A program made the position numbers and the translations under genes. The notes below the pieces were generated by a model. It was given only the letters and a program-made list of their open reading frames with translations, had not been told where the DNA came from and searched no databases. Source: Methanothermococcus sp. Ax23 (lineage in GTDB: Archaea; AGJL01; Methanococci; Methanococcales; Methanococcaceae). Taken from it: a stretch of DNA of 64,000 bases. This document shows, piece after piece, positions 231-64,000 of the stretch (the first letter of the stretch is position 1; each line of letters begins with the position of its first letter). The stretch covers positions 352,001 to 416,000 of the forward strand of contig NZ_CP157522.1 of NCBI RefSeq assembly GCF_049075655.1. The letters run 5' to 3'.

Positions 231-1481
231 ATGATGTTTAAAAAACCAAAAGGAACAAGGGACTTTACACCTATTGAGATGAAAAAAAGAAGAATTATTG
301 AAGATAAGCTAAGAACTGTATTTGACAGCTACAATTTCAAGGAAATAAACACCCCAACATTTGAGAGCTTCGAGCTTCTATCAAAAAAAACTGGTGAAGA
401 TATAAGAAAGCAGTTGTTTGTTTTCAAAGACCATGGAAACAGAGAGATGGGACTTAGACCGGAGCTCACATCATCAGTTGTAAGATTCTATATAAATGAG
501 CTTAAAAACCTTCCAAAGCCGTTAAAATTATACTACTTTGCAAACTGTTTTAGATACGAGAACCCGCAGGCTGGTAGATACAGAGAATTCTGGCAAATGG
601 GATGTGAATTAATAGGTAGTAAATACCCAATAGCAGATGCAGAGATTATAAATTTGGCAATGGATGGGCTGAATAAAATAAATATGGATTATGAAATACA
701 CATAGGACATTTAGGAGTATTAAAAGGAATATTTAAGGAATTTGAACTTCCAGAGGAAGAAGAATTAAAAATAAGAAGATTGATTGATAAGGAAGATTAC
801 GAAGGTTTGGAAAATTATTTATCCGAACTTAAATCATCCGATGATTTAAAGGACATAATATTTAAAATACTAAATTCAAAAGGAGATAAATCTGTAATAT
901 CTGATTTAAAAGAAGTTTTAAAGGATTATCCAACATCAATTGAAGCATTGAATAATTTAGAGGAAATTCTCGAATTTGTAAAGCACGATAATATTGTAAT
1001 AAATTTCGGTATAGCCAGAGGATTGGATTATTATACTGGGATGGTATTTGAAATCTACGGAAAGAGGGAAGGAGCTCGGCAGGTGTGCGGTGGTGGAAGA
1101 TACGACAATTTAATTGAGTTATTTGGAGAACAACCCACACCAGCAGTTGGTTTTGCCTACGGATTTGACAGAGTTATGCTGAATATCGATGATTTTGAAG
1201 TTGAAGATGAAAGCATACTAATAATACCAATTAAAAAAGATAAAAAACTTTTAAAAGAGTGCTTAAATATTGCAGATGTGCTTAGAGAAAGCGGAAAGAG
1301 TGTAGAAGTTGATTTAATGAACAGAAAATTAAATAAAGCTCTGAATTATGCCAATACCGTTGGAATTAATAAGGTAATTATAGTTGGTGAGAAGGAGCTC
1401 AGCGAAGGTAAGGTTTCATTGAAGAATATGAAAACAGGTGAACAAATATTAATTGATTTGGAGGATTTGAGCAGCATTTAA
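231..1481 (+). CDS. hisS: Histidyl-tRNA synthetase
   Basis: [38 protein letters not shown] and GGGRYD motifs; C-terminal anticodon domain. Confidence 0.97.
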
Positions 1482-1652
1482 TTTTTTAATTATCTTTTTT
1501 AACCTTTACTTTTTAGTTATTACTTGTTTTTAAAATAGTCAAATCATATTATCCCACAATGATTAGAAAAATAGAACGAAGAAGGGACAACTCATTCATT
1601 TAAAATAATTTACTGTAATTTAAATAAGTATCGACGATATTTAGGTGAGCTC

Positions 1653-4600
1653 ATGGTATATTACGATTATCAATTTTTAAAGGAAAGAGGATTTTTTGAA
1701 AATCAGGGGAAATTTAATGAAGATAGGAAGGATATAATCGTAGATACTGATAACTATCTTGCATATATGGAAGTAAATAACAACAATGAAGTAGAAGAAT
1801 TAAAAAAACTTATTTTAAACAAGTATCCAAAAATAGAATTATTATACTTCCATTATCAAACTGACAACAAAATAAAAGTATTTAGAAGAACTGGAGGGAT
1901 TAAATGGTTTTATTACTCTGATACTATATCAAAACTTGAAAGAAAAAAGAGCAAACAAGATAAACTTAAAAAATTTTCACCAGATGATGTAGATACATTA
2001 TTTGATATTAAAGATGTAATGGATAAATTTTATAAGGACCTATGGGCTCACAGGTTAGAAATGGCTAAAAGCATAACTGAATCACTCACTGACAATGATA
2101 AATTATTCATTGCTCAACATTTTATTGACAGGCTAGTATTCTTTTACTTTTTAGCACAATTAGGAGTTATTGAAGTTAATATTGATAATAACGGAAGAAC
2201 CTACAATTACAAACTAAACAAAACTGGAACAAAAGACTTTTTTAACTTATTACTCAGCAGTTTTGAAGATGATAAATTACACCAGCTATTAAATAAAATA
2301 TTCTTTGAAGGATTGGGAAATAATGAGAATGCAGTTGATGGTTTTGTTGAGCTCACAATTCCAATGAATAATATGAATATTATAATTAAAGCCCCATACT
2401 TAAACGGTGGATTATACCGGGTAAAAAAATTTAACGGCATTGATGAGACCAATATAAAATTTGATGGAATTAAAAACTTAATAGAAACACTAAACCAGTA
2501 TGATTGGGTAATTGGTGAGTATGCAGAAGAGGATGACGATTCCGTAGGCAGTTTAACGCCAGAAGTAATGGGGTATGTTTATGAAAAATTTGTTGTTGGT
2601 TTAGAGAATATTGGGGAAATAAAATTAGATGAAATAGAGGTTGGTAAAGAAGTTAAAATCGGTAGGAAAAAAGTTGGTGCATTCTATACTCCAGAAGAAA
2701 TAACCAAATACATTTCAGAGAATACTATTACACCATACTTATTTGATAGGTTGAAAGTCAGCGAAAAGTATGATGATTTTAACGAGTTTGTAGATAACGG
2801 AACACCTGAGCTCCTAAAAAAATCATTGGAAGTTTTGAATGATATTAAGATTTTAGACCCTGCATGTGGTAGTGGGCATTTTTTAGTATGTGCAGGGGAG
2901 CTCCTATTTAATATGAAGAATACTATTTGTGAAAAGTTAGAAAAAAAGGATGATTCATTTAATAGAAAGCATAATGCCTATATTGAGATTAAAAATATTA
3001 TAGTGGATAATTTGTATGGGGTGGATATTTGTGATAGTGCTGTTGAGATTACTAAATTAAGATTATGGTTATGGTTGATAAGCCAGTTAAATGATAGTTC
3101 CTCTAAATTAGAACCATTGCCTAATTTGGAGTATAATATCAAATGTGGGAATAGTCTTATTGGCTGGGTTGATGAGGAATTAGCACAGATTTCATTAAAC
3201 AACCCTTACAATGATGAAGTAAAGGGTATTTTAAAAGGTTTAAGAGTAGCATTTAAAGGAAAAGATAGGGAAGATATTGATAACGCCAAAGATTTTTTTA
3301 ATAGTCATGATTTAAATAAATATATTGACTGCTATTGCCTATTATATAAACTTTATAGGAAATCTCACGGTGAGGAAGCTAACTATTTAAAAAAAATACT
3401 AGAAACAATAAGAGTTTCAATGTATAATAGCATAACTTCTGCATTTTTAGATTATATAAATATGAAAATAAAGCCCAAATACAGCAAAAATAAACCGCCA
3501 ATTGCAAAAGAAGAGTTTGATAAACTTCAAGTGTTCCATTGGAAAGTTGATTTTGGTTGGATTATTAAAAACGGAGGATTTGATATTGTAATTGGTAATC
3601 CACCTTATGGTAATATATTAAAAGGTATTGAAAAAAAGATTCTGGAAGAAGGAAAAATATTGGATGTAATTAAAACTGATAAAAAAGGAAAGGGGACGAA
3701 GAATGCTGCTGCAATATTTATCGAAAGGTCAAAAAGTCTTTTAAATAGTAGCGGCTATTTTGGTTTTATTGTCCCAAAAGCAATTTTATATGTTTCTGAA
3801 TGGGAAAAGACTAGAAAATTTCTATTGGAAAAAGTTAATATTAAAAGGGTTGTGGATAATGGTAAGGCGTTCAAAGATGTTAAATTAGAAATGGCTACTA
3901 TAATTTTTAAAAATAATAGTGGCTATAAAAATACCAATAATGTTGTTGTTCATAGTTTATATCTTGATAATTATTCCAAATATTCCACTAATCCATACTC
4001 CATTAATATAAAATATCTCACGAGCAAAAGATTTATTACTGAAATGGATGAGGAAAAAGAAAAAATAATATCTATCATTTTAAAAGATTCTGTATTGTTA
4101 GGAGATATTTCGGAAAATTATAAGGGATTGTCAGTAAATAATAAAGTTTCCAGTGAAAAAACTGAAAATTCGGTTGAGATATTGAGGGGAAATGATATAC
4201 AGAGGTGTTATTTGCGTTCAAAATCATATATTGACAAAAAATATTTAGAAAATATTAATTTTAAAGGTTCAAACCTACAATTTCAAGAAATACTTGCCCA
4301 TATTCAAAATCCAAAACCTCATATAAAAATAACCGGAGTTTATTTAGAGGAACCGTTATTAAATTTAAATACAATTACAAATATCAAATTAACATCTGAT
4401 GAAATTAACGATAAATACTTATTATTACTTCTTCATTCAGAATTAATTAATTGGTATGTGTATAAATATATATACATTAATTCAATAAGAACCATGCACT
4501 TTTCTGGGTCATATATAGAGGATATTCCAATTAAGTTATCAGATAACCAAGATATGTTTGTTAAATTGTGCAATTGCCTTATACTATTAAATCAGACAGA

Positions 4601-4862
4601 ATATAGATATAAATATAATGAAATAATAACATATATTGAAAATATAGCAAACCTCTTAATATATGAGCTCTACTTGGGGGAGGAGGTTATTGGTCATGAA
4701 TTAACTAAATTATTAAGTGGGAAGATATTAAAACTAAAACTTGAGGATATATCATCGATTGAAAAATTTATTTTGGAGTTAAAAGATAATCAAGATATTC
4801 AAAGAATAATAAATGATATAAAAAACAATAATTATGTTAAAATCATAAGGGGGTTATTGTAA
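1653..4862 (+). CDS. Large N6-adenine DNA methyltransferase (Eco57I/type IIG-like, gamma class) with C-terminal target-recognition region
   Basis: GAFYTPEEI, motif I ILDPACGSGHFL, motif IV IGNPPY, FGFIVP, TaqI-C-like tail (LLHSELINWY). Confidence 0.88.
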   Translation: MVYYDYQFLKERGFFENQGKFNEDRKDIIVDTDNYLAYMEVNNNNEVEELKKLILNKYPKIELLYFHYQTDNKIKVFRRTGGIKWFYYSDTISKLERKKSKQDKLKKFSPDDVDTLFDIKDVMDKFYKDLWAHRLEMAKSITESLTDNDKLFIAQHFIDRLVFFYFLAQLGVIEVNIDNNGRTYNYKLNKTGTKDFFNLLLSSFEDDKLHQLLNKIFFEGLGNNENAVDGFVELTIPMNNMNIIIKAPYLNGGLYRVKKFNGIDETNIKFDGIKNLIETLNQYDWVIGEYAEEDDDSVGSLTPEVMGYVYEKFVVGLENIGEIKLDEIEVGKEVKIGRKKVGAFYTPEEITKYISENTITPYLFDRLKVSEKYDDFNEFVDNGTPELLKKSLEVLNDIKILDPACGSGHFLVCAGELLFNMKNTICEKLEKKDDSFNRKHNAYIEIKNIIVDNLYGVDICDSAVEITKLRLWLWLISQLNDSSSKLEPLPNLEYNIKCGNSLIGWVDEELAQISLNNPYNDEVKGILKGLRVAFKGKDREDIDNAKDFFNSHDLNKYIDCYCLLYKLYRKSHGEEANYLKKILETIRVSMYNSITSAFLDYINMKIKPKYSKNKPPIAKEEFDKLQVFHWKVDFGWIIKNGGFDIVIGNPPYGNILKGIEKKILEEGKILDVIKTDKKGKGTKNAAAIFIERSKSLLNSSGYFGFIVPKAILYVSEWEKTRKFLLEKVNIKRVVDNGKAFKDVKLEMATIIFKNNSGYKNTNNVVVHSLYLDNYSKYSTNPYSINIKYLTSKRFITEMDEEKEKIISIILKDSVLLGDISENYKGLSVNNKVSSEKTENSVEILRGNDIQRCYLRSKSYIDKKYLENINFKGSNLQFQEILAHIQNPKPHIKITGVYLEEPLLNLNTITNIKLTSDEINDKYLLLLLHSELINWYVYKYIYINSIRTMHFSGSYIEDIPIKLSDNQDMFVKLCNCLILLNQTEYRYKYNEIITYIENIANLLIYELYLGEEVIGHELTKLLSGKILKLKLEDISSIEKFILELKDNQDIQRIINDIKNNNYVKIIRGLL

Positions 4863-5512
4863 TGACTCAAAGTAGATTTGAACACGGATCTGAAAATAAT
4901 GAAATGGAGTTATTTAAATTGTCCTTGGAATATTTGGAGGGATGCAAAGATTTTAAAGGAATTAAAAATCTAATTGAGAAATACGATAAAATTAAAACCA
5001 ATAAGGAGGATATGCAACATCCTAATAAAGATATACTCGTAAAATTTAAGGATACAACGAAACCTATTATTATGGAACTTCAACAATCCTCCATAGATGA
5101 TTTTAGAAAGTATGGGGATATAAGACTCGATTATGTCTCAGCATATATTCCATATATTAAAATTTGGGGAGGTTTAAAAAATTTCAATAAGAAAATAAAC
5201 AATAAAGAAATAACTATTAATAAATGGGGAAAATTAAAAGAATGTGATGCAGATATTTTAATTTATGTTATTTGTGAGTACGAGAATAATACCAAGACAT
5301 ATAAAAATGTTGATAAAATTTTGATATTGGATATAGAAGAATTACAAAACCATTTGAATTATTGGGAGAATACCTATGGATATAATCTAAAAACAAATAA
5401 TAAAAAGGATGAATACTGGGGTTCAGCGTTTATCCCCATACCTGAGAATGATGAAGTTTTACAACAATGCAAAATCAGGTCATTACAGGATTTAAAAACA
5501 AAGTTTTTATAA
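4862..5512 (+). CDS. Hypothetical protein, putative PD-(D/E)xK-type restriction endonuclease
   Basis: Translationally coupled to the MTase (TAATG overlap); D...ExQ spacing in KDILVKFKDTTKPIIMELQQS and a downstream DADILIYV strand. Confidence 0.5.
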   Translation: MTQSRFEHGSENNEMELFKLSLEYLEGCKDFKGIKNLIEKYDKIKTNKEDMQHPNKDILVKFKDTTKPIIMELQQSSIDDFRKYGDIRLDYVSAYIPYIKIWGGLKNFNKKINNKEITINKWGKLKECDADILIYVICEYENNTKTYKNVDKILILDIEELQNHLNYWENTYGYNLKTNNKKDEYWGSAFIPIPENDEVLQQCKIRSLQDLKTKFL

Positions 5513-5583
5513 ATCCGCAACTTTTGTTGCAGGCTATGAAAATCCTTCGGATTTTCATTTAATTAGTCGTTGGGCTAGGTCAA
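5513..5583 (+). repeat. Short hairpin mosaic ending in an IS200/IS605 right-end-like sequence
   Basis: Hairpins GCAAC-TTTT-GTTGC and ATGAAAATCC-TTC-GGATTTTCAT, then AATTAGTCGTTGGGCTAGGTCAA, homologous to 13241-13289. Confidence 0.65.
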
Positions 5584-5584
5584 A

Positions 5585-6934
5585 TTATCCATTCAACCCT
5601 TCAATAATCCTTTTTATCTCTTCGATTTTTTCGTTCATAAGCTCCTCAGTATCAGCCTCCAAATTCAATCTTAAAAGCGGTTCTGTGTTTGAAGGTCGGA
5701 CATTAAACCACCAATTGTCGCAGTATATAGATATTCCATCGATTTCTTCAATTTTGCATTTACTGTATCTATTTTTTAGCTCATCCATTATCAATTTTTG
5801 GTCTTTTACCTTAAAGTTTATCTCTCCGCTGTGGAAGTATTTTTTATACTCCTTCGATAATTCAGAAAGTGGCTTTCCCATATCCTTTATAGCACATAAT
5901 ATGTAATTTAAAGCAAGCAGTGGGCTTTCAAAATATCCAACTTCTTTAAAGTAAAAGTGATTTGAGAGCTCACCTGCAAATTCTGCATCTACTTCGTGCA
6001 TAAGTTTTTTTATAAAATAATGCCCAACTCGTGTTTTTATCGGAGCTCCGCCATATTTTTCAATCATTTCAGGAACAATCTTACTACATCTTAAATCATA
6101 AACTATTTTTATTTCCTTTTCATTTCCATTCTTAGTTTCCTTTTTCTCCTTCAATATCTCTATGGCTATTAAGACCGTTAATATATCCCCCTGCAAGACA
6201 TTGCCTTTTTCATCAATTATTCCAATTCTATCTCCGTCTCCATCAAATATTACTCCAATATCGCAATTTTCATTTTTAACGGCATTTATTATATCCACTA
6301 AGCAGGATTTTTTCAATGTGTCAGGCTGATGTGCAGGAAATGTTCCATCTGGGTAGTCGTTTATAAATACATGATTAGGTGCTAAATTCTTCAATATCTC
6401 CTTTTCTGCAATAGCTGTGCTTCCATTTGCAAAATCAACTGCTATTTTTATATCGCAGGATACACACCTGTTTAAAAAGAATTTTTTATAATCTGTGATT
6501 ATATCCACCTTTAATTTATCCAAATCGATTTCTTCAATTTCCTTTTTCTGAGCTTCATTTAGTTCATGTTCTTCAAAAATTGGTTTTATTTCATCTATTG
6601 GAGATATTGGAATAGCTTTTTTATCACACATTTTAAATCCAGTATATTCCGGCGGATTGTGGGATGCCGTTAAAATTACCCCCAAATCATAATTATCCTT
6701 TGTTCCAAAATACATCAATGGTGTGGATATTGTTCCAGCATAGGATACTTTTGCACCTGATTCAAGTAGTCCATATATAAATGGCTTGGTGAGCTCCTTT
6801 GAACCTATCCTTACGTCGTTTCCAACCAGTATATTTTTATACTTTTTTCCAAGGGATTTTCCAAGAGAATATGCAAAATTTTCGTCAATTTGTTCTTTAA
6901 AAACGCCCCTAATATCATAAGCTTTAAATACCAC
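5585..6934 (-). CDS. Phosphomannomutase/phosphoglucomutase
   Basis: FKAYDIRG, TASHNP phosphoserine motif, FDGDGDR metal loop, GELSNH, VRPSNTEP. Confidence 0.95.
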   Translation of the reverse strand: MVFKAYDIRGVFKEQIDENFAYSLGKSLGKKYKNILVGNDVRIGSKELTKPFIYGLLESGAKVSYAGTISTPLMYFGTKDNYDLGVILTASHNPPEYTGFKMCDKKAIPISPIDEIKPIFEEHELNEAQKKEIEEIDLDKLKVDIITDYKKFFLNRCVSCDIKIAVDFANGSTAIAEKEILKNLAPNHVFINDYPDGTFPAHQPDTLKKSCLVDIINAVKNENCDIGVIFDGDGDRIGIIDEKGNVLQGDILTVLIAIEILKEKKETKNGNEKEIKIVYDLRCSKIVPEMIEKYGGAPIKTRVGHYFIKKLMHEVDAEFAGELSNHFYFKEVGYFESPLLALNYILCAIKDMGKPLSELSKEYKKYFHSGEINFKVKDQKLIMDELKNRYSKCKIEEIDGISIYCDNWWFNVRPSNTEPLLRLNLEADTEELMNEKIEEIKRIIEGLNG

Positions 6935-10843: not shown

Positions 10844-10860
10844 TTATCAAATGCTGAAAT

Positions 10861-11228
10861 CTGACCTACTCCAACGAGTGAACTCGTTGGGTTCTCGCTT
10901 ACGGTAGTAAGCGAGCAACGAAATCACGAAGTGATTTCGTCTAATTTTAGCAGGGTTTAACCCTACATGGGTGGCCAAGCCCACTACCCCTATCCCCGTT
11001 TAGGAGATTCAGGGCTACGCTGTATCACTAAGATTACTCTATCAAAACAAACCACGATACCAACCACTACCAGCGGTAGAGTTTTCACTAACCCTACCCA
11101 TTAGAACTTGGACTGGTAGCGTTACTTACTATTAATCTTCTCATATTTATATTTTACTACTTACTAGCCGATATAATGTCCGCCTCTCATCCAACGATTA
11201 AAATCGTTGGCTTTCTCGGCGGTTTATC
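10861..11228 (-). mobile_element. Non-autonomous IS200/IS605 MITE (PATE), copy A
   Basis: Near-identical to 12432-12806 and 63274-63595. On the minus strand it follows TTAC (11232-11229), has guide AAAG before the left-end hairpin CCAACGAT-TTTA-ATCGTTGG and GAAC before the right-end hairpin CCAACGAG-TTCA-CTCGTTGG, and ends in TCAG. No ORF. Confidence 0.85.
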
Positions 11229-11344
11229 GTAAAATCCCAAAATTCTAAATTTATAAGTAAAATTTTAGCATAAGGTCATGCAATTGGTTTCATTTGTTTC
11301 AAAGTATATCATTTGATAGTATCAAATTAACCAATTGCTTTATA

Positions 11345-12412: not shown

Positions 12413-12431
12413 TTTTTAGTTTCAAGTTAAG

Positions 12432-12806
12432 CTGACCTACTCCAACGAGTGAACTCGTTGGGTTCTCGCTTACGGTAGTAAGCGAGCAACGAAATCACGA
12501 AGTGATTTCGTCTAATTTTAGTAGGGTTTAACCCTACAAGGGTGGCCAAGCCCACTACCCCTATCTCCGTTTAGGAGATTCAGGGCTACCTTTTGAACTT
12601 CCAACCACTACCAGCGGTAGAGTTTTCGATAACCCTACCCATAGATACTTGGACTGGTAGCGTTACTTACTACTAATCTTCACATATTTATATTTTACTA
12701 CTTACTAGCCGATATAATGTCCGCCTCTAATCCAATCTCATAAGAGATTTTACAAAACTATGTTTTGTATAACGATTAAAATCGTTGGCTTTCTCGGCGG
12801 TTTATC
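12432..12806 (-). mobile_element. Non-autonomous IS200/IS605 MITE, copy B
   Basis: Same ends as copy A (CTGACCTACTCCAACGAG...CGGCGGTTTATC|GTAA); has an extra 37-nt module at 12736-12772. Confidence 0.85.
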
Positions 12807-12989
12807 GTAAAATGTTTTTAAATAAGCATGTCGAATATATAATGTTATCATATAATCGCAAAAACCTGAGCTCGCACTATGGCAACATAAAAATCAAATG
12901 GATTAGGGATATAGTCTGTATTAATTAATATTACTTTTAATATAATTTATTCAATATATCATCGTTAAATTAACAGGTTTATTTTTTAC

Positions 12990-20238: not shown

Positions 20239-21553
20239 GACTCATTAGGCAGGAAGCCCACGATTTCAATCGTTATACAAAACAATGTTTTGTAAAATCT
20301 CTTACGAGATGGGAGGAATGCCGTTTTTTAGCATACATCATACTTAAAACCACCAAAAACTTTTTATATATTGAATGATATACTCAATAGTATGGTGATA
20401 CCATGCTATTAACACTAAAATCTAAACTAATAACAACACCAGAACAAAAAACCACACTATTAAAAACAATGGAACGATTCAATTCAGCATGCAATTACAT
20501 ATCAAAAATAGCATTCAAAACCAAAACCTTTGGAAAAGTAAAACTACAAAAACTCGTATATTATGATGTAAGAGAAAAATACGGTTTATCATCTCAAATG
20601 GTGGTAAGAGCAATAGGAAAAGTATCAGAAAGTTATAAAACAGATAAAAAAACACTTCATAAATTCAAACCACACGGTGCAATAATATACGATGAAAGAA
20701 TACTAACAATCAAAACACCAGACACAATATCAATACTAACAATAAACGGTAGAATAAAACTACCAATCAAATTTGGAGATTATCTACCATTGGAAAATAA
20801 AAGAGTGAGAGGGCAGGCGGATTTAATCTACAAAAACGGTGAATTTTACCTAATGCTTGTTGTAGATATTCCAGAAGAGCCTCCAAACTCTTCATTTTCT
20901 AATGTGTTAGGTGTTGATTTAGGTATTGTTAATTTAGCAACTACGAGCGATGGAGTAAAATACTCGGGAGAAAAATGCACGAAAGTAAGAAAACGATACG
21001 AGAGATTAAGAGCAGAATTACAAAAGAAGAACACTTGGAGTGCTAAAAGAAAGCTTAAAAAAATAAGTGGTAGAGAAAGACGATTTAAACGGGATATAAA
21101 CCATTGTATTTCTAAACAAATCGTCATAACTGCCAAAGGCACGAACCGAGCGATTGCCTTAGAAGATTTGAAAGGCATTCGAAACGGTGGCACGGTTAAT
21201 AAGGCAGTTAAAAAACTTATTGACAGATGGGCATTCTATGAGTTAGCACAATTTATCCAGTATAAAGCAAAATTATACGGTGTTCCAGTATTCTTTGTTA
21301 ATCCACGATACACGAGCCAAACTTGCAGTAATTGCGGTCATGTGTCTAAAAATAACCGTAAAAGTCAGTCAGTATTCGTTTGTGAAAAATGTGGTTTTTC
21401 AGAGAATGCTGATGTTAATGCCGCTTTGAACATTGCCCACCGAGCAGAACAATACTATTTAGGGCTGTCCTGTCAGCCAGCCTAATGTCCTCCGCCCTAA
21501 TTATTAAGGGAGTTGGAAGGACAAGCCAACGGATTTATCCGTTGGTAGCTGAC
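20239..21553 (+). mobile_element. IS200/IS605-family (IS1341-type, tnpB-only) element
   Basis: Inserted after TCAC. Left-end guide GAAG plus hairpin; right end CAAG-CCAACGGA-TTTA-TCCGTTGG-TAGC-TGAC. No target duplication; removal restores the host ORF. Confidence 0.9.
20403..21485 (+). CDS. tnpB: RNA-guided endonuclease TnpB
   Basis: RuvC-I GVDLG, RuvC-II ALEDL, zinc finger TSQTCSNC...CEKC, RuvC-III NADVNAALNI; catalytic D-E-D intact. Confidence 0.95.
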   Translation: MLLTLKSKLITTPEQKTTLLKTMERFNSACNYISKIAFKTKTFGKVKLQKLVYYDVREKYGLSSQMVVRAIGKVSESYKTDKKTLHKFKPHGAIIYDERILTIKTPDTISILTINGRIKLPIKFGDYLPLENKRVRGQADLIYKNGEFYLMLVVDIPEEPPNSSFSNVLGVDLGIVNLATTSDGVKYSGEKCTKVRKRYERLRAELQKKNTWSAKRKLKKISGRERRFKRDINHCISKQIVITAKGTNRAIALEDLKGIRNGGTVNKAVKKLIDRWAFYELAQFIQYKAKLYGVPVFFVNPRYTSQTCSNCGHVSKNNRKSQSVFVCEKCGFSENADVNAALNIAHRAEQYYLGLSCQPA

Positions 21554-32972: not shown

Positions 32973-34319
32973 ATGAGGGATACTATGGATAAGGATAATA
33001 ATAAAAATATGGATTTAATGGACGAAACTATAAAAATATCATCAGATTTAATTAAAATAAATTCAGTTAATCCGGCATTTGGTGGATTGGGGGAAATGGA
33101 AAAGGCAGAATACGTATTAACTAAATTGAATGAGTATATACAAAAGTATAATATAAAAAATTATTCAATAAAGCAATACAATACAAAGGATGATAAGGAC
33201 ATAATACGACCAAATATTGTGGCAAAGTTCGATTTTGGAAAAGATAGAACACTCCATATAATTTCTCATCTTGATACTGTTCCAGAGGGAGATTTAAATC
33301 TTTGGAACACGAATCCTTATGAGCCAGTAATTAAGGATGGGATGATATATGGAAGAGGAAGCGAAGACAACCATAAAGCAATAGTTTCATCCCTGTTATT
33401 GTTAAAAATGATTTTTGAAGATGAAAATAAAGATAAAATTCCAAAATATAATTTGTGCCTAATATTTGTATCAGATGAAGAATGCGGCAGTAATTATGGT
33501 ATTCAACATATATTAAAACTTGACAAAAACCCAAAGGGCTTTTGTAAGTCAGCGAATCCGAAGGATTCGCTTCGATATGAAAAAGAGATTTTTGATGAAA
33601 ATGATTTAATAATAATCCCAGATTTTGGAACACCTGATGGAAATTATATAGAAATAGCAGAAAAAAATATACTATGGATTAAATTTAAAATTAAAGGAAA
33701 ACAATGTCATGGAAGCACACCAAACGATGGAATAAATACCGATGTTCTAATGTTCAATTTTGCAAATAACCTTTACAATATGCTCTATACTAAATACGAC
33801 AAAAAGGATGAGTTATTTTCTCCGTCATACTCAACCTTTGAGCCTACCATGATTTTTAACAATGTTGAAAATGTGAATACCATTCCGGGATATGTGGAAT
33901 TATGCTTTGATTGTAGAATACTCCCAGATTATGATGTCGATGAGGTTTTAAAAGATATTGATGAATTTATTGGTGATTTTAAAAATAATATTGATAAATA
34001 TTTAAAATACTACGATAAAGAGGAAGAGAAAAACATATCAATTGAATATGAAATCCTACAAAAGGAGCTCTCACAAAAAACACCTGAAAACTCTGAAATA
34101 GTTGTCGAGCTCGGGGATGCCATAAAAAAGGTATTAAACAAAGAACCGATTTTATGCGGTATGGGAGGAGGCACAGTTGGAGCATTTTTAAGGGCAAAAA
34201 ACTATGATACGGTTGTTTGGGGCATTGGTGAAGAAACTGCCCATCAACCAAATGAACATATAAAACTCGAAGATTTAATAAAGATGGCTAAAACATACTA
34301 CGAAATTTTAAAAGAATGA
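32973..34319 (+). CDS. M20 metallohydrolase (DapE-like) carrying a 19-aa palindrome-derived insertion
   Basis: SHLDTVP, GRGSEDN, SDEECGS, GKQCHGS, AHQPNE. Confidence 0.88.
   Translation: MRDTMDKDNNKNMDLMDETIKISSDLIKINSVNPAFGGLGEMEKAEYVLTKLNEYIQKYNIKNYSIKQYNTKDDKDIIRPNIVAKFDFGKDRTLHIISHLDTVPEGDLNLWNTNPYEPVIKDGMIYGRGSEDNHKAIVSSLLLLKMIFEDENKDKIPKYNLCLIFVSDEECGSNYGIQHILKLDKNPKGFCKSANPKDSLRYEKEIFDENDLIIIPDFGTPDGNYIEIAEKNILWIKFKIKGKQCHGSTPNDGINTDVLMFNFANNLYNMLYTKYDKKDELFSPSYSTFEPTMIFNNVENVNTIPGYVELCFDCRILPDYDVDEVLKDIDEFIGDFKNNIDKYLKYYDKEEEKNISIEYEILQKELSQKTPENSEIVVELGDAIKKVLNKEPILCGMGGGTVGAFLRAKNYDTVVWGIGEETAHQPNEHIKLEDLIKMAKTYYEILKE
33519..33575 (+). repeat. 57-nt double-hairpin element inserted in frame in the DapE-like gene
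   Basis: Nearly identical intergenic copy at 41577-41633. Confidence 0.85.
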
Positions 34320-62241: not shown

Positions 62242-63162
62242 ATGAAATGCAGCATTTGTAAAAAAAACATAACTATCTATCATCAACGCCATTCTGGCTT
62301 AAACTTCTGTAAGGAGTGTTTTATAAGCTATGTAAAAAAGAAAGTTAGAAAAACTCTTGGTAAGAATATAATAAAGCAGAACATCAAAATAGGTATGGGA
62401 TTAAGCGGTGGAAAAGACAGTTTAGTAATGGCACATATCTTAAACGAATTTTACAAGCCAATACCTAACTCAAATATAGTTGGTCTTATCGTTGATGAAG
62501 GTATTGAAGGGTTTAGAAGGGATGGAATAGATGCAGCAATTAAATTTTGTGAAGAATACAACATAGAGTATAAAATAGCAACCTTTGAAGACCATATTGG
62601 GTATAATTTAGATGAAATTGTCAAAATAGCGAAAGATAAAAACCTTACAATGAACCCATGTTCATTCTGTGGAGTGATTAGAAGAAAAATATTGAATAAA
62701 ATGGCATTAAATGAAAAATGCAGCTATTTGGCAATAGGTCATAATTTAGATGATATATCCCAGGCTGTAATGATGAACTACATTGAGGGAGATATTAAAA
62801 AATTGGCAATTTTGGGGAAAAATGTAGATAATCCAATGTTTGTTAAAAGAATAAAGCCATTAAAAAACATTCCAGAAGATGAAGTTTTATTATTTGCTGA
62901 TTTGCTTGGAATGAAATATCATAAAGCACCCTGTCCATATTCCTCAATTTCATATAGGGCAGAGGTATCTGATATAGTTGATAAACTTGAAGAAAACCAT
63001 CCCGGAGCAAAATACTCCATTGTTTCAGGTTTTGAAAAACTTTTAGAATATTTGCCTGTTGAGAAGGAAATGAATGTATGTAAATACTGTAAAGACCCAT
63101 CAGCTTCTGAAATATGTAAAGTTTGCATGTTTTTAGAAAAGTTGGGCATACTTGACGTTTAA
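62242..63162 (+). CDS. ncsA: tRNA 2-thiolation protein (NcsA/TtuA family)
   Basis: SGGKDS PP-loop, CSFCGVIRR, GHNLDD, CPY, terminal Zn fingers. Confidence 0.82.
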   Translation: MKCSICKKNITIYHQRHSGLNFCKECFISYVKKKVRKTLGKNIIKQNIKIGMGLSGGKDSLVMAHILNEFYKPIPNSNIVGLIVDEGIEGFRRDGIDAAIKFCEEYNIEYKIATFEDHIGYNLDEIVKIAKDKNLTMNPCSFCGVIRRKILNKMALNEKCSYLAIGHNLDDISQAVMMNYIEGDIKKLAILGKNVDNPMFVKRIKPLKNIPEDEVLLFADLLGMKYHKAPCPYSSISYRAEVSDIVDKLEENHPGAKYSIVSGFEKLLEYLPVEKEMNVCKYCKDPSASEICKVCMFLEKLGILDV

Positions 63163-63273
63163 TCATATATATACATTAGTTTATTATTTAATTTTTTATA
63201 TGCTAATATCAAATACTCCTTATAGGGCATTATATAATTTTAGTTAATGATTATTTTGCTTATTTATTTTTAC

Positions 63274-63595
63274 GATAAACCGCCGGGAAAGCCAACGACT
63301 TCAGTCGTTATACAAAACATAGTTTTGTAAAATCTCTTACGAGATTGGATGAGAGGCGGACATTATATCGGCTAGTAAGTAGTAAAATATAAATATGTGA
63401 AGATTAGTAGTAAGTAACGCTACCAGTCCAAGTATCTATGGGTAGGGTTAGTGAAAACTCTACCGCTGGTAGTGGTTGGAAGTGCATAGCGTAGCCCTGA
63501 ACCCATTAATGGGTAGGGATAGTGGGCTTGGCCACCCGTGTAGGGTTAAACCCTACTAAAAGAACCCAACGAGTTCACTCGTTGGAGTAGGTCAG
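63274..63595 (+). mobile_element. Non-autonomous IS200/IS605 MITE, copy C, inserted in the 3' end of thiI
   Basis: TTAC|GATAAACCGCCGGGAAAG-hairpin ... GAAC-hairpin-AGTAGGTCAG|; reverse complement of copies A and B. Confidence 0.88.
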
Positions 63596-64000
63596 TGCTT
63601 AACATTTCCTCAATCCTTTCAATCTCTTCAATATCTGCATTGGTGATGGGATATTTTGGAACTGCAAAGCATTTTATTTCCTTGCTTGTTGATATTCCAT
63701 AGGTGCCAATTTCTTTTGCGATATTGATGATTTCGTTTTTATCCATTCCAATAAGTGGCCTTAATATAGGGTATGTTATTCCATTGCTTATTACAGATAT
63801 GTTTTTCAATGTTTGAGATGCAACCTGTCCTAAATTATCTCCATTTACAATAGCTTCACATTTTAGTTCTTCCGCATATTTTTCGGCAATTTTAAGCATG
63901 GTTTTTTTACAGAATATGCATATGTATTTTTCCTTTCCAATATCCTCTAAATTGCTTTTTATATTTTGTAATTCCTCTTTGTAATCCTTAACTATAAGTT
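63546..64000 (-). CDS. thiI: tRNA 4-thiouridine synthase ThiI, 3' part (partial; last 16 aa MITE-derived)
   Basis: YICIFCKKTM, GDNLGQVASQT, ILRPLIGMDK, GTYGIS. Confidence 0.9.
   Translation of the reverse strand, partial: LIVKDYKEELQNIKSNLEDIGKEKYICIFCKKTMLKIAEKYAEELKCEAIVNGDNLGQVASQTLKNISVISNGITYPILRPLIGMDKNEIINIAKEIGTYGISTSKEIKCFAVPKYPITNADIEEIERIEEMLSTDLLQRVNSLGSFSRV

Follow-up and report, generated by a model that had tools for sequence, protein, structure and literature searches.

Protein-free IS605-type mini-elements of Methanothermococcus sp. Ax23 join a mid-tnpB RNA module to an omegaRNA-type right end

Three mini-elements in the window

The window analysed here is a stretch of 64,000 nucleotides from the genome of Methanothermococcus sp. 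Ax23 (contig NZ_CP157522.1, positions 352,001 to 416,000). It contains three short elements, copies A, B and C, and a tnpB gene of another clade (Table 1). An earlier note on this DNA had placed the three copies, all following TTTTAC and all ending in TCAG, had quoted their flanks as guides and had pointed to a TATAAA at 63388 in copy C, and we found each of these just as it had been described. The strand, which had been left unstated for A and B, is minus for these two and plus for C. The sequence of copy A has an exact twin elsewhere in the genome (G000:C1:993048-993415). AAAG lies ahead of the left hairpin and GAAC ahead of the right hairpin.

Table 1. Features of the three mini-elements and of the tnpB gene in the window
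Feature	Position	Strand	Remark
Mini-element copy A	10861..11228	-	368 nt
A: TTAC target / left cleavage site, predicted TAM	11229..11232	-	
A: AAAG left guide tetranucleotide and left-end hairpin	11191..11214	-	
A: TATA box	11144..11151	-	31 nt ahead of module
A: two-helix RNA module	11066..11120	-	homologous to mid-tnpB
A: right-end omegaRNA scaffold	10861..11018	-	contains 50-nt double-hairpin insert 10896-10945
A: flank, predicted guide	10845..10860	-	predicted from TnpB biology
Mini-element copy B	12432..12806	-	375 nt
B: TTAC target	12807..12810	-	
B: optional 37-nt double-hairpin insert, left end	12736..12772	-	insert present in 21/27 short copies
B: TATA box	12685..12692	-	
B: two-helix RNA module	12607..12661	-	
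B: right-end omegaRNA scaffold	12432..12589	-	50-nt insert 12467-12516
B: flank, predicted guide	12416..12431	-	predicted
Mini-element copy C	63274..63595	+	322 nt
C: TTAC target	63270..63273	+	
C: AAAG, left-end hairpin and 37-nt insert (63308-63344)	63288..63344	+	
C: TATA box (TATAAA from 63388)	63388..63395	+	predicted start near 63418, from archaeal spacing
C: two-helix RNA module	63419..63473	+	14-nt bulge
C: right-end scaffold	63491..63595	+	
C: stem A of scaffold	63491-63521	+	
C: pseudoknot hairpin	63524-63537	+	
C: further scaffold stem	63540-63556	+	
C: GAAC right guide tetranucleotide	63562-63565	+	
C: right-end hairpin	63566-63585	+	
C: pseudoknot partner	63590-63595	+	
C: flank, predicted guide	63596..63611	+	predicted
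tnpB of another clade, not cognate	20403..21485	+	no module match

Set against the longer tnpB elements with the same ends (the parents, below), a mini-element consists of a left end of 56 nt, which may also contain the 37-nt insert, roughly 50 nt found only in the mini-element and including the TATA box, a 43-nt core that corresponds to parent positions 532-574, a short linker and the element's last 105 nt. The nested stems that lead up to the right end had been put at about 180 nt; this length holds for copy C (178 nt) but not for A (261 nt) or B (231 nt), both of which are lengthened by the 50-nt hairpin insert and A also by an extended linker. The linker of copy A shows an antisense likeness to the parent mRNA (E value 0.003) that is not conserved. 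The folding energy of copy C gave a z score of -3.97 and its reverse strand one of -3.92; since both strands fold alike, folding energy alone leaves the strand unfixed.

The family in the Ax23 genome

The 1.67 Mb genome of Ax23 (G000) contains 27 complete short copies with both ends, 283-405 nt in length and free of ORFs, and 26 of the 27 are distinct in sequence. The right-end insert of about 50 nt seen in A and B is present in 18 of the 27. Two further short copies exist, one interrupted by another insertion sequence and one decayed. In the former (G000:C1:1542609-1544034) a 1.1-kb insertion sequence, whose 327-aa ORF lies on the opposite strand, splits the promoter region, while the latter (G000:C1:514047-514260; L029) lacks the right-end hairpin and adjoins an apparent tRNA gene on the other strand.

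All 27 complete short copies have TTAC directly on their 5' side (background 0.004 per position), and this is the fixed target; a T occupies position -5 in 23/27 and position -6 in 14/27. The earlier proposal of an IS200/IS605 mini-element with IS608-type pairing between guides and cleavage sites was supported, with AAAG/TTAC on the left and GAAC/TCAG on the right, and the right-end pairs covary across the clade (GAAT/TCAA in 21, GAAA/TCAT in 10 and GAAC/TCAG in 8 of 39 sequences). The right guide of IS608 is GAAT; unlike IS608, the family described here has GAAC/TCAG at its right end, in a genome without an intact tnpA. IS608 of Helicobacter pylori has the same left guide AAAG and target TTAC, and its cleavage sites are likewise read by pairing with guide tetranucleotides, according to the open text of PMC3201880.

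Sequence changes among the copies had been said to preserve pairing, and this was borne out across all 27, with paired bases in 459/459 cells of the module, 188/189 of the right-end hairpin and 162/162 of the pseudoknot, though most stem positions are invariant among such close copies. Drift among copies was 0.099 in the promoter and 0.245 in the linker, versus 0.062 in the module and 0.070 in the scaffold. Using TTAC plus the 16-nt guide as query (one mismatch allowed at most), we found no second genomic match for any of 36 elements, as expected if the empty site is the only target. A search for the empty sites of A and B met orthologous intergenic DNA in three relatives that was too diverged, and no paralogous empty site.

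Small double-hairpin units recur in and around this family. The 37-nt unit at 12736-12772 and 63308-63344, which interrupts the left-end hairpin of this family, is also found at about 20274-20310, where it interrupts that of the unrelated tnpB element in the window. Units of about 45-50 nt lie in the right ends of A and B (10896-10945 and 12467-12516), frameshift seven of the nine parent tnpB genes and, in relatives (L224, L229, L233, L011, L060), occupy the loop of the inner module helix, with the helix left intact. At 32973-34319 of the window, a 448-aa ORF has a short stretch resembling an in-frame hairpin-repeat insertion.

Parent elements, cognate TnpB and TnpA

Nine longer elements of 1.38-1.57 kb in the same genome have the ends of the mini-elements and carry tnpB alone, so that the parental tnpB with shared ends that the earlier note called for was found. 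Two of the nine reading frames are intact, one of them at G000:C1:1300979-1302447, and in the other seven a short double-hairpin insert shifts the frame. Because the ends are identical and two of these genes are intact, the putative cognate TnpB is present in the Ax23 genome itself. The tnpB in the window had been judged not to be the cognate, and we agree: its product has 33% identity over 239 aa, a canonical RuvC-II, other ends and no module. A tenth, diverged copy (L028, G000:C1:945500-948600) has a clade tnpB of 68% identity, other ends (TCAT) and a 24-aa tail of tnpA, and its module helix is kept through non-synonymous changes on both sides. Beyond this 24-aa tail we found no Y1 TnpA in the Ax23 genome, while an intact TnpA lies directly upstream of clade tnpB genes in G024, G032 and G015.

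The catalytic residues were compared in 54 clade proteins, a subset of 83 matches selected to be full-length and well spread. A RuvC triad of D194, alternative E331 and D367 was invariant in 54/54, and the usual RuvC-II position was a glycine in 54/54. A RuvC site rearranged in this way is reported to be active in TvTnpB (PMC10530073, open text). By its residues, the predicted cognate TnpB has a complete catalytic triad, rearranged like that of TvTnpB and Fanzor. A search of the PDB returned only distant TnpB and Cas12f chains (best E value 9e-19) and none of this clade. Named relatives of the clade TnpB belong to Methanocaldococcus, Methanothermococcus and Methanotorris and also to thermophilic bacteria; the metagenome loci of the clade carry no taxonomy. 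One metagenome member (L072), with a protein that is 57% identical, differs little from the Ax23 family in its left end and ends on the right in TCAG as that family does, unlike closer archaeal relatives, which suggests swapping of ends.

The right-end scaffold

Over its last 105 nt the element matches the parents at 86-96%. This part folds into a first stem, a small hairpin that pairs through its loop with the element's last bases, a further stem and the subterminal hairpin. Pairing of the loop with the 3' end amounts to 4-6 bp in 38/38 parsed parents (of 39). The pseudoknot energy was -4.95 kcal for native partners and -3.22 +/- 0.24 for swapped ones, with 0/2000 swaps as stable, although this test overstates the case since kin share both partners. 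The earlier description of the right end as an omegaRNA-type scaffold is thus upheld by its parental derivation and by a 3' pseudoknot that covaries. The pseudoknot partner is 55-60 nt away from the TnpA hairpin, and the pseudoknot is not among the parts that TnpA is known to recognise, which points to a function as RNA. Alone, the right end is 105-135 nt long with its own pseudoknot, compared with a scaffold of 116 nt in ISDra2, and the scaffold may be complete without the module.

The mid-gene module

The predicted RNA begins with 55 nt that form a two-helix module with a 14-nt bulge, which in the parent is located in the middle of tnpB, about 700 nt upstream. The reading of all 180 nt as right-end omegaRNA therefore stands for the last 105 nt, which do come from the right end, and fails for the first 55 nt, which come from mid-tnpB.

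To assess covariation of the module, we used 36 codon-anchored parent rows, hand-picked from 66 distinct clade rows at the module codon; seven rows with inserts, truncation or a frameshift were left out, the rest of those omitted being near-duplicates. Paired bases filled 96.5% of 684 cells, compared with 81.5% after shuffling, a comparison inflated by relatedness, and 38-44% after sliding; the alignment was anchored on codons and not fitted to structure. Changes on both sides of a pair numbered 120, in 13 of 19 pairs, and G-U pairs were common. Some two-sided changes within this coding region are non-synonymous. In a blind helix scan over 1273 columns of 33 elements, the two highest-ranking of 61 helices were those of the module. 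Identity at synonymous sites among 43 coding sequences (793 pairs) was 0.67 at the module and 0.66-0.68 at the omegaRNA overlap, versus 0.45 overall.

Evidence for contact between module and scaffold was also sought. Among the top MI pairs (39 pairs; 15 rows with inserts or truncations left out) none linked the module to the scaffold, and for pairing of the bulge with the whole scaffold 931/2000 swaps were as good. The bulge and the pseudoknot loop could form 3-6 bp in 38/38 parents, with 69/2000 swaps as good, and the helix scan gave one module-scaffold candidate among its 61 helices, 5 bp between the bulge and a strand of stem A. Short pairings between module and scaffold are possible on this evidence, at chance level.

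Promoter and transcript signals

The TATA box lies 31 nt ahead of the module in A, B and C, and 25-32 nt ahead at eight loci of relatives. Given the archaeal spacing between TATA box and start, this distance places the predicted start at the first bases of the module. The public data covered were four RNA runs, all from one vent study, and two further runs whose kind is unrecorded, as contigs only, which carry neither ends nor strand nor level. The junction of module and scaffold, which is specific to the mini-elements, was present in contigs of one RNA run and one run of unrecorded kind. Summed contig depth at the right versus the left end was 1129-6120 versus 326-418 in RNA run X2 and 256-406 versus 69-166 in RNA run X1, and the two runs of unrecorded kind had no right-end excess (X18, 125-210 right versus 244-369 left); contig depth cannot rank the parts in any of these. 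Across 62900-64000, vent contigs from runs X1, X2, X7 and X9 show the element with other flanks, a hint that related strains may have additional or polymorphic insertion sites.

Spread among relatives

Searching 40 genomes of the order with a model of the module gave matches in 12. ORF-less fusions of module and scaffold behind a TATA box were found in nine of the 40, namely in Ax23 and in G024 (3), G029 (3), G032 (6 matches, 3 inspected), G017, G027, G036 and G039 (1 each) and G015, and tnpB was absent at 11/11 fusion loci checked. Three of these genomes, G017 and G027 (both complete) and G036 (86%), have a module mini-element and no match to the clade TnpB. Among ten mini-element RNAs (including the decayed Ax23 copy) pairing holds in 91% of cells for one module helix and in 96% for the other, and five module pairs, with both helices represented, have changed on both sides; only helices 1-3 entered these counts.

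The fusion elements carry the ends of local parents, and all share a CCAG/CTGG closing stem that is distinct from that of the parents. This common stem argues for one old lineage and not for repeated independent choices, and it led us to drop the idea of separate fusion origins in G000 and G024. The fusions are best read as a single old lineage that has probably swapped its ends.

Elements without the module also occur: L009 is ORF-less and has the clade right end, and L004 is an internal-deletion copy. The module was absent from 11 TnpB loci of 32-54% best-segment identity and from another tnpB of Ax23. Sampling further genomes under strict filters returned the module in 0/150 of the G061 phylum and 0/133 of the G045 phylum. 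There was no exact pattern match to the module in viral contigs and no TnpB match at 1e-60 in plasmids.

Relation to known systems

In IS605 elements, TnpA excises and inserts the element at a tetranucleotide, and the site left empty is cut by TnpB with its omegaRNA, whereupon repair brings the element back; PATEs, as Meers et al. state, encode omegaRNAs that are used in trans (10.1101/2023.03.14.532601). Transcription of a haloarchaeal PATE was reported in 2015 (Gomes-Filho et al., PMC4615843). As in the elements described here, PATEs have no ORF, two intact ends, a right-end omegaRNA and are proposed to rely on TnpA and TnpB supplied in trans. Unlike them, PATEs in the available text of these two papers (10.1101/2023.03.14.532601, PMC4615843) carry no internal structured piece of the tnpB coding sequence fused ahead of the scaffold. 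From their ends and layout, copies A, B and C are identified as such protein-free IS605-type mini-transposons (PATEs), related to the tnpB elements with the same ends. The idea of a guide-only IS605 element is already in print, and the mid-gene module on PATEs is undescribed: open papers yielded no description of a mid-gene structured module kept by PATEs, while the 59-ortholog tables of PMC10278001 may list a clade member.

The ISDra2 omegaRNA resembles the right end described here in its 3'-terminal pseudoknot with an upstream loop, its subterminal hairpin and its use of the flank as guide; it differs in being a single continuous scaffold, with no mid-gene part needed according to the open text (PMC10097598). 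For AmaTnpB (Nety et al., PMC10278001) an internal region of the tnpB mRNA likewise affects the RNP, but that inhibitory stretch adjoins RuvC-II, and no conserved covarying fold is described for it there. The split reRNA of TranC is likewise a two-part guide RNA, yet TranC, in the open text of PMC13639567 where it is cited, needs a CRISPR array, and none lies within these elements.

HgcC (Rfam RF00062) represents a sister family, whose elements likewise combine a promoter with a guide RNA. Six of the eight loci inspected are made up of a left end, a TATA box and an omegaRNA-like RNA that ends in GTCAG, with a variable flank, no tnpB nearby and the RNA directly after the TATA box. Unlike the family described here, HgcC has another 5' fold and no module. 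The HgcC model scored copy C at 26.8 bits and the best Ax23 copies at 24-30 bits, all under the gathering threshold of 50. Searching the window against Rfam gave no match at gathering level and, at E-value level, only weak HgcC matches and chance matches of microRNA type. The ORF-less IS605 mini-elements among the Rfam HgcC loci are L252 and L254-L258 (in G031, G039, G033, G032, G017 and G029). Two of them, L254 and L255, have a left-end and promoter cassette in common with the module element L222 of G039, which suggests that cassettes may be swapped between guide families.

Interpretation

We propose that each mini-element would make one compact RNA from its predicted TATA promoter, composed of the mid-tnpB module, the right-end omegaRNA scaffold and a guide derived from the flank. 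Cognate TnpB from the longer copies would load this RNA in trans. TnpA would move the elements by peel-and-paste into TTAC and, once a copy has been excised, TnpB carrying its RNA would cut the empty site of TTAC plus flank, so that repair could restore the copy, as in other IS605 elements. The module would be a working 5' domain of the guide RNP of the clade, which is the least certain step of the scheme. In the parent mRNA, where it lies about 700 nt upstream, it might be looped out or cut free, and the mini-element would be a natural fused form. We give about even chances to this reading, in which a compact fused RNA is loaded in trans and the module works as the 5' domain of the guide RNP. 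Its bolder version can be offered only tentatively: a two-part guide RNA in a plain transposon, with a tracr-like domain in the middle of the coding sequence and a right-end scaffold 700 nt away, and with the mini-elements as single-guide fusion genes that have their own promoter and ride on the clade across genera.

The module-less L009 and L004, the missing covariation between module and scaffold, a right end that is possibly complete alone and the single lineage of the fusions count against the proposed scheme, as do the lack of an intact TnpA in Ax23, the frameshifts in seven of nine parents and the three genomes with no clade TnpB match. The next explanation in order, which we hold to be less likely, is that a trans-loaded omegaRNA is made while the module serves in regulation or biogenesis, is then trimmed off and stays outside the final RNP; it could be a site for TnpB loading or 5' processing, a 5' stabiliser, or an off-switch that blocks the pseudoknot loop with its bulge. 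TnpB trims the 5' end of its own RNA, and cleavage by AmaTnpB is inhibited by a stretch within its mRNA (PMC10278001), the right end looks structurally complete, and bulge and pseudoknot loop are able to pair in every parent parsed. This pairing, however, barely beats swapped partners, and a pure inhibitor at the start of the RNA, kept in nine genomes, would be hard to explain unless it also aided loading. That the RNA is a decoy, 28 copies of which titrate TnpB away from the RNAs of the parents while cutting of their own empty sites matters little, strikes us as very improbable: short copies outnumber intact parents 28 to 2 and the module could be a strong binding site for TnpB, yet the guide-adjacent pseudoknot, kept in 162/162 cells and re-formed with other bases in relatives, fits a working guide.

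Finally, the module and stems could act in single-stranded DNA during transposition by TnpA, or be passive remnants of a deletion favoured by hairpins, with no functional RNA at all. Expression data that lack ends and strand, the nearly equal folding of both strands and the single origin of the fusion are compatible with this. It is nevertheless improbable in view of the frequent G-U pairs and two-sided changes, some of them non-synonymous, in a coding region, the distance of the pseudoknot partner from the TnpA hairpin, the constant TATA spacing across genera, and a drift that is greater in promoter and linker than in module and scaffold. On sequence evidence, an extra RNA domain is likely, being well supported as a structure, and its guide role is predicted.

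If the module belongs to the guide RNP, the omegaRNA of this whole TnpB clade has been mis-delimited, and enzymes of the clade would look weak or dead in screens that supply the right end only. The family would then be a CRISPR-free example of a split guide, a step that has been proposed for the origin of tracrRNA, and the mini-element would offer its fused form as a ready RNA of 178 nt.
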